IMG/VR virus record: IMGVR_UViG_3300034523_000112 | Location: 1 to 31,754 of that record | Strand: one strand, 5' to 3' | Length of the DNA stretch: 31,754 nt | Source of the DNA: a virus | Lineage: Duplodnaviria; Caudoviricetes | Shown: positions 1,293 to 15,312 of the stretch, one piece after another | Layout: every line of letters begins with the position of its first letter | How positions within the stretch are numbered: the stretch's first letter is position 1 | Translations under genes and position numbers: made by a program | Notes under the pieces: generated by a model | Told to the model about the DNA's origin: nothing | The model's input: the letters and a program-made list of their open reading frames with translations, nothing else | The model's database searches: none

Positions 1293-2279
1293 CTACAGCT
1301 TTTTTGGCATCTTCGGCGGCAGGCCCACGTTGATTTTGCGCAGGCGCAGATATCGCTGCGTCATCTTGGCGTCGGTGTGTCCGCCGAGCTTCTGTGCGTC
1401 GTTACCCTGGTCGTCGGTATCAGAAAGAGACTTGGCCCGCAGGTCATGGAGACTTGCATCCTCGACTCCGGCTTTCTTGCAGCTGATGGCGAAGGCGTCC
1501 TTCACTGAGCTGTAGTGCACCGGCTTTCCGCCGCGCGGTGAACAGAACAAAGTGAGCCCTCGGATCTTCCTCGGCAGCGCCTTGACTCTGGCAATCAGGT
1601 CCTCAAGGTCTGGCGTCATCTTCACCAGCAGCCTGGCATTGGTCTTTTCCTGCTTGAAGGCGATGCCCTCGGTGCTGATGTCTGCCAGGCGGATTGCCAG
1701 AACGTCACCGATGCGCTGGCCGGTCAGGTAGCACATCTCATAGATAACGCGCATGTTTGGGCTGGATTTGTCGCAAATCGCTTGGAACTCGCCATGGGTG
1801 ATGTACCGGTCGCGCTTGTGTTCCAGGTGTCGACGGACGCCGATGCACGGGTTTGAGTCGACGATCTGTTGCTCTAGGGCATAGGTAAAAACCGCCCGCA
1901 GGACCGAGATAACCCTGTTCGACATATTCGGTGTGTCGGCCATGTGTAGCTTGAGCGCGACGACGTGCCGCTGCAGCACCTCGCGGGGTTCGAAGTCGGC
2001 GAAGTTTTCCTTCAGGCGCTCGCACGCCGCTTCATACTGCTTGAGCGTGTTTGGCTTAAGTGGGGGCTTCGTTCGGTTGCGCATGTGTTCGAGCGCGTCG
2101 TCGATCAGCTTGGGCATACCGCCCTGGCTGCCCTTGTCCAGCAGCTTGGCGTACTCGGCCAGGGATGCCTGAAAGTCTGTGCCCAGGCGCTTCCATTTGC
2201 CCTTTCGAACCAGGTAATAAGCGCCATGTTTCTGGTACATGCACGCCGGCAGGTGCCGATCCTTCTTGCGCGGACGCAT
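1293..2279 (-). CDS. int: Tyrosine recombinase (phage integrase)
   Basis: TGQRIGD, HDLR, LGGH..KMTQRY catalytic motifs. Confidence 0.95.
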   Translation of the reverse strand: MRPRKKDRHLPACMYQKHGAYYLVRKGKWKRLGTDFQASLAEYAKLLDKGSQGGMPKLIDDALEHMRNRTKPPLKPNTLKQYEAACERLKENFADFEPREVLQRHVVALKLHMADTPNMSNRVISVLRAVFTYALEQQIVDSNPCIGVRRHLEHKRDRYITHGEFQAICDKSSPNMRVIYEMCYLTGQRIGDVLAIRLADISTEGIAFKQEKTNARLLVKMTPDLEDLIARVKALPRKIRGLTLFCSPRGGKPVHYSSVKDAFAISCKKAGVEDASLHDLRAKSLSDTDDQGNDAQKLGGHTDAKMTQRYLRLRKINVGLPPKMPKKL

Positions 2280-2290
2280 CGTTCTTCACC

Positions 2291-2485
2291 TCAACCCAGC
2301 CGAAGCTCCGGCCCCTTCCTTGATTGAATACCACCCAGCCGGCCAATAACAACCTGGCGCAGCACCTTCGGGTGACCATCACCGCCTACCGCGAACCCGT
2401 AGCGTTCGGCGGTCAGCCACTTTATCTGTGCCCCTGGCTTCTTGTAGCCGGTCAGGTCGGCAACTTCATCTGCTGTCAGAAACAT
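2291..2485 (-). CDS. Excisionase-like protein (DUF4224-like)
   Basis: MFLTADEVADLTGYK...QIKWL, directly upstream of int. Confidence 0.8.
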   Translation of the reverse strand: MFLTADEVADLTGYKKPGAQIKWLTAERYGFAVGGDGHPKVLRQVVIGRLGGIQSRKGPELRLG

Positions 2486-2801: not shown

Positions 2802-3355
2802 GACTTTCTCCTCTTAATCTCTTTTTTAATTTCGTTCTGCAGGTGCAGGATGTCGATTAGCTCCTCGGGCAGATCCTTGTGTTTTGCGTGACGGCGGATT
2901 TGGTTCTCGGAGCGCGTGCGCAAACAAAGGTTGTCCAGCTCAACGTTCCGAACATTCCCGTCCTTCGCCGCTACGATCATCCCTTCGGGGACTGGGCCGT
3001 TTGCCTGCTCCCAGGTGTGTGTATGAAGCGGCTTCCAAACATCCGGCTGGGAAACCTTCACAAGGATGTATCGCCCCTTCTGATGTATTGCTCCGACCGG
3101 CCTCGGGTCTTGGCCAGGTGGCTTGCCGCGCTTTTCCCAAGCCGAGAAGAATGCTTTTCTGGAAGACTCCGCGCGATGAGCCGCGCTCTTCCTAATCCCC
3201 AGCCCTTTAGCTCTTTGGCAAATTGCGGTAAGGGTGCGACCAGGTAGGAGATTCAACATGGAGTCATTGCCACCGGCTTCGTAAAACCGCCGAATAATGC
3301 CGTCCTCGGCTTCGCTCCAGCGCTTTGTTTGGCGCCCGCCTGCATCCTTACGCAC
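2798..3355 (-). CDS. HNH_3-like protein with N-terminal Myb/SANT-like repeat
   Basis: KRWSEAED...LPGRT...RAKGLG, then H..WEQANGPVPEGMIVAAKDGNVRNVELDNL. Confidence 0.75.
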   Translation of the reverse strand: MRKDAGGRQTKRWSEAEDGIIRRFYEAGGNDSMLNLLPGRTLTAICQRAKGLGIRKSAAHRAESSRKAFFSAWEKRGKPPGQDPRPVGAIHQKGRYILVKVSQPDVWKPLHTHTWEQANGPVPEGMIVAAKDGNVRNVELDNLCLRTRSENQIRRHAKHKDLPEELIDILHLQNEIKKEIKRRKS

Positions 3356-3515
3356 GACAGTGGTCCTGCTGAAAATGGTCAGCCAGCACCCGGCGTGCGT
3401 CGATGCCGCACGATGCCGACAGCTTGTAGATCTGGCCGAAGGTGGTTTCCCGGCGCTGCAAGGCGTTAAACAGCTCGATCAAACGCTGGGCCTTGGTACC
3501 GTTGCAGCGGTTCAT
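3348..3515 (-). CDS. Small 55-aa phage protein
   Basis: Manual [58 protein letters not shown]; ATGA overlap upstream, overlaps the next start. Confidence 0.7.
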   Translation of the reverse strand: MNRCNGTKAQRLIELFNALQRRETTFGQIYKLSASCGIDARRVLADHFQQDHCRA

Positions 3516-3793
3516 AGTTGGAACCTCTTTTCCTGTGGGAGTGGGGCGGCGGTGGCGGGCCCAATCTCGCCGGCAGAAACTACCAGAGAGACCCGTGCTG
3601 CCTCATCTTCTGGGGTGGCGGTGGTCGTGCCCTGCTGTAGGAGCGAACTGTCCGGCAAGCAGCTGATGCCGGTGCCCGCGATGATCCAGCAGGTGACCGA
3701 GCGCACGCTGTCGTGCTGTACATCGATCAGCTGCTCGCCTGCGGCGGCCTGGTCGATTACCAGCAGCAGGGCGATAGCGATCATTCGGCGCAT
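3512..3793 (-). CDS. Hypothetical protein with signal-peptide-like N-terminus
   Basis: [18 protein letters not shown]; fits the coupled operon. Confidence 0.65.
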
Positions 3794-4209
3794 GGGTGCG
3801 ACTCCAGCAGGCGGGCCAGGCGCAGGGCATTGTCAATTTCCCGATCCAACTCCTCGCCGGTTAAGTAGCGGTCGCCTCGCAACACGAGCAGGTCGTTGTC
3901 GACATCTTCGATCAGAGCCCTATCTCGCAGGTGGCGGTAGCGCCTGGCGTCTGCCGCCATCTTCACGCGCTCATCGATGCTCACTGATGCATCAGGGTCG
4001 TGGGTGTCGGCGGTTTGTTCAGACTGCCCCGCAGCAACCGTCTCTGCGCGGATGCGCTCGTAGACTTCCTGACGATGCACTGCTACCCCAGGAGGGGCAG
4101 TGATGCCCAGCCGTGTCTGCTGTCCGCTGACGCCAAGCACGGTAAGTATGATGTCGTCGCCGATCCGGATGTTTTCACTTGGCTTTCGAGTGAGAATCAA
4201 CATGGTCAA
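3781..4209 (-). CDS. csrA: Phage CsrA/RsmA-family protein with C-terminal extension
   Basis: [48 protein letters not shown], plus ~85 extra residues. Confidence 0.9.
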
Positions 4210-4279
4210 ACTCCTTTTTCAGGCAAGCCGGTGGCCCGCCGATATATGGAAATCAGTGAAGATTGGTTAATTCTTTTTG

Positions 4280-4750
4280 TTAGGACGCTTTGAGCAGTCC
4301 TGTTTTTCGTTTGCCTTCGCGTCGCACGAAAGCCGTTACGCCACACAGCTTCGCCTGGGCGTCAGCATGTTCCCGGCGCTTTTCTTCTGAAAGCTCGTCA
4401 TAGCGGATATTGCGAATTGCACCGGCCAACTTGCCCAGCTCTTGTTTTACCTTTCCGAATGCCGAGTGCCATGCGAACTCAACTTGTTCGTTTGGCTCAA
4501 CTACTTCATAGCCGGCTCCGCGAACATTACGAAGAACCAACTTATGCTCTTCAAGAAGTTCCTGGCGAAGGGCATCCATGCTGGCGAGAAAATCAAGTTG
4601 GTAAGACTTGAATTCATCGATGCTTTTTGGCTCTTGCAGGTGAAATGCTTCCTGGAGCCAGACCATGCTCACCAGATCGCCATATTTGAACTTCTCGGCA
4701 ATATCTTTAGCTGCCTGGCGCCATTCAGGGTGGAGTGTCGTATTGGTCAT
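4280..4750 (-). CDS. Hypothetical winged-helix-like protein, partner of the Cas7-like gene
   Basis: ATGA overlap with 4747-5331; LRQEL...LRNVRGAGYEVV resembles a wHTH recognition helix and wing. Confidence 0.7.
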   Translation of the reverse strand: MTNTTLHPEWRQAAKDIAEKFKYGDLVSMVWLQEAFHLQEPKSIDEFKSYQLDFLASMDALRQELLEEHKLVLRNVRGAGYEVVEPNEQVEFAWHSAFGKVKQELGKLAGAIRNIRYDELSEEKRREHADAQAKLCGVTAFVRREGKRKTGLLKAS

Positions 4751-5331
4751 TCCATCACCTCGACATTGAAGCGACCGAACGCACCACCTTTCTCTGGGCG
4801 GTAGTCGCAGAGACCAACGAACAGGCCTGCGTTCTCGGCGGCTCGGATTACATCTTCGCGCTCGATCATTTCGGGCGAATACATAATTTCAACGGTGGTG
4901 GTCCAGTCCGAAAACTTAGGTCGGTACCGGATAATCCGGGAGGTGCCCACCACCACGCTGCGCGCATCTACAAAGCGTGGGTTGGCGAACATCTTTTCTT
5001 GGTCGCGCGGCCCGGTGTATTCGAGCTTGCAACGATCATCCAGAACCAGCACAGCACGCTTGAACGCAGCACCCAGGCGCTGGATCTTTGCCGCACCAAC
5101 GAGTGCTGACTTAATGTTCTGGCCGGGCAGGAATGGACCGAGCTCTGCATCATGATATAGCGCTCCGAGCCATTCCGACTTGGCGATATCGGCGTGGTCC
5201 TCATCCAGCTTTTTGCGCTTGCTGGTTAGCACTTTGTGACCCTTGGTCGCTTCGTCCAACGGATTGGCGAACCGGTCGCTGTGCATCAGCAGCGGCGACT
5301 GGCCAATGAGTTTGAGTTTGATCGTCTGCAT
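4747..5331 (-). CDS. Solo Cas7/RAMP-like RNA-binding protein (Vipr-like)
   Basis: N-terminal strand IKLKLIGQSPLLMH; PFLPGQNIKSAL (cf. RAMP PxIPGSSxKGAL); C-terminal Gly-rich loop GLCDYRPEKGGAFGRF; no other cas genes nearby. Confidence 0.75.
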   Translation of the reverse strand: MQTIKLKLIGQSPLLMHSDRFANPLDEATKGHKVLTSKRKKLDEDHADIAKSEWLGALYHDAELGPFLPGQNIKSALVGAAKIQRLGAAFKRAVLVLDDRCKLEYTGPRDQEKMFANPRFVDARSVVVGTSRIIRYRPKFSDWTTTVEIMYSPEMIEREDVIRAAENAGLFVGLCDYRPEKGGAFGRFNVEVME

Positions 5332-5400
5332 TTTCCGTACCCTGCCTTGATGGTTGTTTCACTGCACTGATCACCAAGTGGTGACCAGTACGCTGATACA

Positions 5401-5465
5401 TCCAGCCCACGCCCCGCCATTCCTTACCGCGCCAAGCCGCGCCAAGCCAAACCGCGCAGCGCCAT
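5401..5465 (-). repeat. Pentamer tract A (13 units)
   Basis: Minus strand: AT GGC GC TGC GC GGT TT GGC TT GGC GC GGC TT GGC GC GGT AA GGA AT GGC GG GGC GT GGG CT GGA. Confidence 0.9.
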
Positions 5466-5518
5466 GGTGATGCTTTCGCATCGCACAGAGCTCTCAGTGA
5501 AAGCTCTGTACGCTGCTT

Positions 5519-5578
5519 TGCAGCCCATGCCACGCCTTACCAGACCCAGCCATGCCTAGCCGCACCATGGCTCGCCGC
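5519..5578 (-). repeat. Pentamer tract B (12 units)
   Basis: Minus strand: GC GGC GA GCC AT GGT GC GGC TA GGC AT GGC TG GGT CT GGT AA GGC GT GGC AT GGG CT GCA. Confidence 0.9.
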
Positions 5579-5628
5579 GTGATGCCTTAGCACCGGACAG
5601 CACCCTCACCGAAGGCGCTCGCCGCTGC

Positions 5629-6018
5629 TTATGCGATCGTGTAACCGTCAACCCGTCGCGCCGTCATGCGCAACTCGACACGACGCTCACCACCACCACG
5701 GCGAACCCGGAGCATCTGGTCGTCACTGATAGCGGAATGGCCGGTGAGGATTGCGCAGATCAGCACCACTAGATGGCGCGCTATGCCACGGCAGAACAGC
5801 TCTGTAGGAATTGCCGAGCGACTGGTGATACCGAGCTTGAAGAAGACGCGCTCAATGGATTTTTTGACGGTGCCGGGAGCGCAGCCAACGACACGAGCAA
5901 TTTCCTTGTTGGCCAAGCCAGCGCAGACAGCAAGGGCGGCACGCAGCTCTTGTTCAGCAAGTACGCCGGTGGTGCCTTGGAGCTTGCCGAAATTGATAAC
6001 CGTGCTCATCTCTTTCAT
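5629..6018 (-). CDS. LuxR-type HTH protein, first gene of the leftward operon
   Basis: EQELRA...AGLANKEIARVVGCAPGTVKKSIERVFFKLGITSR. Confidence 0.85.
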   Translation of the reverse strand: MKEMSTVINFGKLQGTTGVLAEQELRAALAVCAGLANKEIARVVGCAPGTVKKSIERVFFKLGITSRSAIPTELFCRGIARHLVVLICAILTGHSAISDDQMLRVRRGGGERRVELRMTARRVDGYTIA

Positions 6019-7039: not shown

Positions 7040-7345
7040 ATGGCTCAAAAAATCAGCGAACTAATAAATCATTTCGGTAGCCAGTCGAAGACCGGGGATG
7101 CCCTCGGCGTGTCTCAAGCAACAGTTTCTTATTGGCTGGCCGGGTCGCAAAAGGTTAGCCCCGAAAAGGCAATGCTTGCCGAGATCGTAACCGGTGGCGC
7201 GATCAAGGCCTCTTCGCTCTGCGAGCTTATTGCTCAGGTCGAAGCTCGCCACAAGGTAGGTGAATCTTCCACTGAATTCCCGATCCGCGCACGTGGGCCT
7301 GATGGCTCTGTATGCGCATCCAGTACCCAGCAGATCACCCAATGA
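7040..7345 (+). CDS. cro: Cro-like HTH protein (YdaS/P22-type)
   Basis: LINHFGSQSKTGDALGVSQATVSYWL; divergent from cI. Confidence 0.85.
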   Translation: MAQKISELINHFGSQSKTGDALGVSQATVSYWLAGSQKVSPEKAMLAEIVTGGAIKASSLCELIAQVEARHKVGESSTEFPIRARGPDGSVCASSTQQITQ

Positions 7346-7536
7346 CTCCCGTATCAAGCGGCATTCCACTCGAAGAATTCATTGAGCGCAACGGCAGGAA
7401 GCAGGCGGCGAGAGAACTGGATTGCACCGGACCTGCTTTGTCGAAAGCAATCGCAGCAGGTAGGACCATTTTTGTGGATCTGGCCGCAGATGGCTCGGCA
7501 TCGGCAAAAGAAATTAGCAAGTTCCCGGGACGGTAA
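7342..7536 (+). CDS. Second Cro-like protein (lambda Cro type)
   Basis: IPLEEFIERNGRKQAARELDCTGPALSKAIAAGRTIFVDLAADGSASAKEISKFPG parallels lambda Cro (AINKAIHAGRKIF...ADGS...E.KPFP); ATGA-coupled start at 7342. Confidence 0.8.
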   Translation: MTPVSSGIPLEEFIERNGRKQAARELDCTGPALSKAIAAGRTIFVDLAADGSASAKEISKFPGR

Positions 7537-15167: not shown

Positions 15168-15179
15168 TTTCACCTGTAG

Positions 15180-15312
15180 CCAGGACAGCCCTCGGGAAGG
15201 CCTGGACGTCGATAGCCGGATAGTGCGACGTACGGAAATAACACCGGCAGCATGAGCAGCTCATTCCTGTGCTATTGGGGCTGGCTCAAGCAGACCGAGG
15301 GGAAAGACCCTC
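15180..15312 (+). ncRNA. Candidate structured RNA
   Basis: Several stems and a possible pseudoknot in an intergenic stretch. Confidence 0.35.

Follow-up and report, generated by a model that had tools for sequence, protein, structure and literature searches.

The phage DNA analysed here, a stretch of 31,754 bases that we call the window, very probably carries a type II VIPR cassette whose guides, judged from sequence comparison, likely silence the early left operon of sibling prophages. The carrier itself likely escapes this silencing through mismatches in its own copies of the two sites. The cassette was assigned to type II from the homology of its Vipr and vap1 products to those of SUSP1. 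A preliminary description of the same DNA had proposed a candidate RNA-guided system that might not be wholly undescribed, and VIPR was indeed published in 2026; the system, its code, targets in Pseudomonas prophages, the lack of self-targets and lower self-scores are already found in the preprint text (10.64898/2026.04.26.720920, 10.64898/2026.10.15.759431). This is a known system, and the window is a new example of it with natural targets for both guides.

The close relatives of the window come from Pseudomonas. Its genes are arranged in the order N-terminal part of mutS, integrase, excisionase, small leftward genes, cI/cro, replication, Q, holin and head/tail, and the window is therefore an integrated lambdoid prophage. 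The cassette belongs to the leftward early run on the minus strand and is flanked by a LuxR-type HTH gene and a csrA-like gene (Table 1; csrA-like gene at 3781-4209). Both tracts, vipr and vap1 lie on this strand, which confirms that the array is sense to the genes downstream of it; the non-coding stretch, earlier put at about 260 nt, actually measures 297 nt (5628-5332). A search for a promoter dedicated to the array returned two consensus sites against 1.5 expected by chance, and none inside the array. Directly after the cassette, the csrA-like gene (minus strand) encodes a CsrA-domain protein with a C-terminal extension, homologs of which are common in sibling prophages. At the other end of the leftward run, positions 1-1290 contain the N-terminal mutS part and then a 108-aa ORF (761-1087) without known family, before the integrase, and the attachment site is probably located within this segment. 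The plus strand also holds a tandem pair of Cro-like genes (7040-7345 and 7312-7536) and, downstream of the Q gene, an Rfam Proteo-phage-1 RNA (15174-15252; 78.6 bits, gathering score 42).

Table 1. Features of the cassette, its surroundings and its target sites (window positions unless a locus is named).
Feature	Position	Strand	Evidence or remark
Excisionase (2291-2485) and integrase (1293-2279)	1293..2485	-	terminal end of the leftward gene run of the cassette
Own counterpart of the guide-1 target	3412..3447	+	17/24; inside 55-aa ORF 3348-3515 (minus strand)
Own diverged counterpart of the guide-2 target	4238..4270	+	13/22 paired bases; just upstream of the retained hairpin and the csrA-like gene
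vap1-type accessory gene, 156 aa	4280..4750	-	homolog of the gene directly after vipr in SUSP1
vipr, predicted RAMP-family guide-binding protein, 194 aa	4747..5331	-	PDB 36pp_D; phrog_4652; LESphi2 90%
Tail hairpin 2	5359..5396	-	fold z -5.4
Guide tract 2 (vrRNA2 repeat region)	5404..5468	-	GGY in phase in 9/12 pentamers
Tail hairpin 1, then a short GAAA-loop hairpin	5478..5516	-	fold z -6.8
Guide tract 1 (vrRNA1 repeat region)	5522..5586	-	GGY in phase in 10/12 pentamers; ends in GGGCT, common to related tracts
Leading hairpin unit, no tract upstream	5590..5628	-	RNA fold z -3.5; starts right after the LuxR-type HTH stop
LuxR/GerE-type HTH gene, upstream neighbour	5629..6018	-	Pfam GerE E 9e-9; cassette starts at its stop codon
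Copies of the guide-2 target element	L063:2485-2575; L065:2452-2542; 24 loci L166-L189; window 4205-4270		sequence conservation

The two tracts of 12-13 GGY-NN pentamers that had been noticed before stand out from the remainder of the window, where GGY is in phase in at most 5 of 12 pentamers. In 60 dinucleotide shuffles of the window, the peak GGY score was 4 (27 shuffles), 5 (28) or 6 (5). For type II VIPR, adjacent tracts of 9-16 YNNGG units with variable NN are expected, and the two tracts agree with this. Degenerate units are present in both tracts. The array follows the layout hairpin, tract, hairpin, tract, hairpin, and its three hairpins, each 38-39 nt long, were absent from the preliminary description. 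A leading hairpin without preceding tract also heads the arrays of five relatives (L002, L003, L006, L007, L052). An alignment of 14 tail units from the window and four relatives revealed changes on both sides in 8 of 13 predicted hairpin pairs; the hairpin structure is thus conserved as RNA. Hammerhead ribozymes between the guides were considered and rejected, as an Rfam search of the array gave no match. Two contigs (X11, X12) carry the same cassette with 112 additional nt separating the two guides (window 5480-5518). This is the size of one unit and consistent with a third guide unit, suggesting that guides come and go as whole units.

The motifs that had been quoted as RAMP hallmarks are present in the 194-aa protein. 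By phmmer, its residues 1-193 align to 'SUSP1 Vipr protein', a chain deposited in the PDB (E 1.8e-39), with 72 of 190 aligned residues identical, and this full-length match bears out the VIPR assignment that had been suggested before. The putative fold is assigned by homology to the solved SUSP1 chain. In SUSP1 Vipr, mutation of K33, K82, R138 or D177 is reported to abolish silencing and mutation of R39 to reduce it (10.64898/2026.04.26.720927); the window protein keeps R39 and, as counterparts of the former four, K33, K82, R137 and D176. Of the thumb and G-loop positions, H17, K33, R39, K82, G87, R137, D176 and R178 are identical to SUSP1 and Y177 replaces W178, and five further named Vipr positions differ between the two proteins. 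The earlier label of a Cas7-like protein has to be given up, since Vipr forms a separate RAMP clade and the protein has no Pfam hit. Cas7 or a known defence family was ruled out as its identity, as neither the 194-aa nor the 156-aa protein is matched in Pfam, NCBIfam or PADLOC. In agreement with the earlier remark that cas genes and CRISPR repeats are not visible, no Cas family was found among the 56 ORFs of the window scanned against Pfam, and no CRISPR array among the 20 largest of 45 direct-repeat families in this partial prophage.

Vipr had also been described as a solo protein, which does not hold because the adjacent 156-aa ORF is its vap1 partner. The coupling of the two frames by an ATGA overlap was confirmed. 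The 156-aa protein is 30% identical to the product of the gene directly 3' of SUSP1 vipr (E 9e-11), and the name vap1 is given by the position of that gene next to vipr in SUSP1; the Atlas matches of the window protein are unnamed clusters. According to the VIPR preprint text, both vipr and vap1 are needed in natural SUSP1 infection. Homologs of the 156-aa protein occur in 54 of 58 vipr loci, and same-strand GGY tracts lie near vipr in 44 of the 58 related loci, with NN differing among relatives. The strict scan found no tract in the other 14 loci, several of which have little upstream sequence. Among the vipr-vap1 loci without a canonical GGY tract in the scan (L011-L014, L016, L030, L032, L034, L040, L046, L047 and L051), non-canonical repeats may be used. 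Locus L039 carries three further GGY tracts (L039:3542-3743, minus strand), possibly a second or orphan array; they lie upstream of vipr at a distance of about 1.3 kb, on the opposite strand.

For target searches, the guides were decoded by the published one-base-skip rule, by which an NN pair is followed by one skipped target base. The model of the preliminary description, one protomer per GGY, NN pairing and silencing without a nuclease, is the same as that reported in the preprints (10.64898/2026.04.26.720920, 10.64898/2026.04.26.720927). The pairing of NN with a target stands, and the preprints refine it to double-stranded DNA read with a one-base skip. As described in their text for SUSP1 and P. 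fulva, Vipr forms a filament on GGY, pairs in a gapped manner with double-stranded DNA and silences transcription from either strand.

With one skipped base, the reverse strand of guide 1 was first seen to resemble the 55-aa ORF of the window itself (17/24), and searches made independently of this gene lead to the same target. The ten NN units of guide 1, with at most one mismatch, match 8 of 401 Pseudomonas genomes, and all eight matches lie in homologs of the 55-aa gene; the reversed pattern has no match in the 401 genomes. A strict nine-unit pattern gave no viral matches, and a perfect guide-1 target was not found. With one position relaxed (a wobble of guide U against target G), which for guide 1 as for guide 2 was picked after the targets had been seen, 33 viral contigs are matched, 33/33 in the 55-aa gene, and a shuffled control of the relaxed pattern matched none. 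Guide 1 reaches 20/24, past 80%, in 34 of the 45 loci that carry the 55-aa gene, and 19/20 over its central ten units. The skipped base is the third codon position and varies at nine of ten positions. Skip rules of 0, 2 and 3 were rejected, as they gave no targets and, outside the arrays, did not exceed 17/24. The only match of the 55-aa protein is phrog_22608, a family of unknown function, and its Atlas scores are below 0.9.

The target of guide 2 is a conserved non-coding element of sibling prophages, whose start lies only a few bases past the LuxR-type stop codon. Guide 2 matches it at 20/20 in two loci (L063, L065) and at 80% or more in 26 of the 45 loci with the 55-aa gene. All 24 viral matches obtained after relaxing one position fall in this same intergenic element, and 22 of the 24 have AG where the window guide has GG. 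A single change at 5415 in the cassette of contig X11 converts guide 2 to the commonest target allele at this relaxed position; the resulting version matches at 22/22 in 4 of 50 loci versus 0 for the window guide. Guide 2 is less specific than guide 1: its 12 matches in the 401 Pseudomonas genomes comprise five in the prophage element, six in potE orthologs and one in xdhC, and 5 of 7 viral matches of the strict nine-unit pattern are unrelated.

Many Pseudomonas prophages have this element, about 55 nt in length, behind the gene that opens their early left operon; it consists of a T-run, an A-rich core and a GC-rich hairpin, followed by a ribosome site. Rfam searches at E up to 1 gave no match for the element in L063, L065, L003 or L075, its consensus fold is weak (-4.3 kcal/mol), and literature searches on put-type antiterminators provided no lead to it among the papers listed. 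On one side of the window cassette lies the LuxR-type stop codon, on the other a copy of the element that is colinear but diverged. We rejected the idea that the cassette had removed or split the guide-2 site, as this copy is still present downstream of vap1. L002, which carries no guide 2, has an element that diverged in a similar way, and L003, L006 and LESphi2 keep a copy at 16-17/22. Targeting of the empty site is not supported as a general rule for the clade: among 21 guides parsed from seven loci, some of them duplicates, the element is among the top hits only for guide 2 of the window.

Both guide sites pass 80% in 22 of the 45 loci with the 55-aa gene. In these loci, the element is followed by the 55-aa gene and then, where they lie within the flank, by excisionase and integrase. 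The integrase is at least 95% identical to that of the window in 20 of the 45 loci, one of which shares the array of the window, and in these 20 loci the excisionase starts 93-885 bases past the guide-1 site. Many of the targeted prophages are thus probably rivals for the same attachment site. At the self-match threshold of 80%, taken from the VIPR preprints, both self sites fall short (17/24 and 13/22), while sibling alleles reach 20/24 for guide 1 and up to 21/22 for guide 2; U-G or G-T wobble could accommodate the commonest mismatches. The guides of relatives likewise decode to prophages of this set, for which a skip of 1 is required, and none of them matches its own locus equally well: guide 1 of L002 and guide 2 of L007 each reach 21/22, and a LESphi2-type guide 1 reaches 21/24 in L007, itself VIPR-bearing. 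The Pseudomonas typographi locus (L052:5150-5960) contains at least six parsed guides, one of which has a run of identical GGCAA units and looks blank or slipped; most of the L052 guides have no match in the small prophage set.

These observations can be combined into a putative course of events. The array would be transcribed along with the early left operon and its RNA would be cut at the hairpins, for which we suggest RNase III as a candidate. Vipr filaments, guided to the early left operon of a rival, could then block transcription upstream of xis and int and might thereby affect excision or integration of the rival. The window thus provides a case in which both guides have clear natural targets, and it suggests that VIPR is deployed against closely related prophages competing for one integration site, by blocking the excisionase/integrase operon. 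SUSP1, which silences the recombinase of its satellite, offers a parallel.

Within the guide-1 footprint, residues 31-32 of the 55-aa allele of the window deviate from the consensus; between residues 10 and 49, they are the only ones to do so. Among 53 homologs, which leave out the window, the array-sharing contig (L001, L066) and the duplicate L087, K31 occurs in none and L32 in four, and 43 have IYAMS. Residues 31-32 are changed in the same way in the contig whose array is identical and in a contig in X1. In the 16.6-kb contig X12, guide 1 is accompanied by a different divergent 55-aa allele, which by hand reading pairs at about 16/24 among the rows listed; X11 probably shares this allele. 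The VIPR preprints put forward the idea that a guide that skips wobble positions can be escaped only through an amino-acid change, and a change at two otherwise conserved residues fits this idea. Guide 1 is hence seen with two distinct mismatched alleles and with no matched one, an association that is no more than suggestive, because non-matching alleles make up 10 of the 53 homologs anyway. In none of these ten loci, which depart from IYAMS, was vipr found within the flanks examined, so that a mismatched allele need not be an escape allele.

A further reading goes beyond silencing of rivals and is unlikely: the cassette would act as a nuclease-free selfish allele, with VIPR-bearing recombinants silencing and outcompeting siblings that have an empty site at the shared attachment site. 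This would amount to a homing-like drive by silencing, in which every gain or loss of a guide would involve a complete tract-plus-hairpin unit, with cuts at the hairpins separating the units as in CRISPR repeats. In this reading, what guide 2 recognizes is the insertion spot of the cassette itself, a few bases past the LuxR-type stop codon, in its state without cassette.

That the system is a genuine VIPR with outdated guides that have ceased to silence current rivals effectively is quite unlikely. The imperfect guide-1 matches, the degenerate units and the prevalence of AG over the GG of guide 2 in element copies would all fit such a decay, but the wobble compatibility of the commonest mismatches, the intact vipr and vap1 frames and the retained key residues argue against it. 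We regard it as very unlikely that the guides mainly regulate a host gene, for instance potE, or the carrier itself, whose left operon would be tuned by partial matches. Each guide has a colinear counterpart in the window, guide 2 matches the potE orthologs at 19/20 in 6 of the 401 genomes, and the P. fulva complex is described as co-purifying with presumed off-target DNA (10.64898/2026.04.26.720927). However, the self sites remain below the threshold that sibling alleles reach, the potE matches represent a single ortholog family in which the last guide unit fails, and the guide variant of X11 tracks a phage allele. Simple repeats beside an orphan RAMP-like gene, without any RNA guidance, could be argued from the lack of family matches for both proteins and from the loci without tract, but this extremely improbable account is largely refuted by the match to a solved Vipr, by NN that vary across relatives next to covarying tail hairpins, and by specific decoded targets with null controls.

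The preferred reading, a type II VIPR cassette directed at sibling prophages, places the window close to SUSP1 (10.64898/2026.04.26.720920, 10.64898/2026.04.26.720927, 10.64898/2026.10.15.759431; PDB 36PP). As far as the preprint text describes SUSP1, the two share the gene order, with a homologous Vipr (38% identity) followed by vap1, tracts of GGY/NN that carry structured 3' tails, targets read with a one-base skip at codon wobble positions and a cassette without nuclease. In contrast to SUSP1, all guides of the window lie upstream of vipr and are preceded by an extra leading hairpin, and the tails are long hairpins, known from predicted folds, instead of the pseudoknot described for SUSP1. 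Moreover, the window derives from a temperate Pseudomonas phage with sibling prophages as predicted targets, whereas SUSP1 targets a satellite. Class 1 CRISPR systems with Cas7/Csm3 share the RAMP-type backbone that, according to the preprints, polymerizes on guide RNA; the window differs by the lack of a Cas family or CRISPR array, by its 5-nt period and by gapped pairing.

The type II VIPR of a P. fulva prophage resembles the window in several respects given in the preprint text: it resides in a Pseudomonas prophage, combines vipr with vap1, has guides against resident Pseudomonas prophages and shows no self-match at 80%. Its three guides, compared with two in the window, are described as directed mainly at lysis-lysogeny regulators. 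The P. fulva VIPR clade is defined by more than 90% identity to P. fulva Vipr, and the window was compared with it by the quoted residues only. R136, C171, V173, D175, Y176, R177 and A79 of P. fulva Vipr (Fig. S19) correspond to R137, V172, L174, D176, Y177, R178 and G79 in the window; because the quoted numbering is shifted by one and three positions differ, the window Vipr is probably not the characterized P. fulva protein, and the two probably belong to different sub-clades. The sub-clade of the window and its two targets were not found in the VIPR preprint text, although the data files and Fig. S15 may list them, and the terms 'aeruginosa', 'LESB58' and 'excisionase' are absent from the supplement PDF of 10.64898/2026.04.26.720920.

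The closest named carrier is the Pseudomonas phage vB_Pae_LESphi2 (OQ594955), whose P21_9 is 90% identical to the window Vipr and P21_8 71% identical to its vap1. The LESphi2 cassette occupies the same position after a LuxR-type gene and has the same hairpin-tract layout, but it carries three different guides and, between its array and vipr, has kept the element in near-consensus form. Published VIPR infection work, according to the preprint text, covers SUSP1 and lambda in E. coli only, and the near-identical cassette of LESphi2 represents a ready test system for prophage-against-prophage VIPR. In the LESphi2 record of the Liverpool epidemic strain (OQ594955.1, L112), VIPR is located at 4403-5945 and both genes are annotated as hypothetical only.
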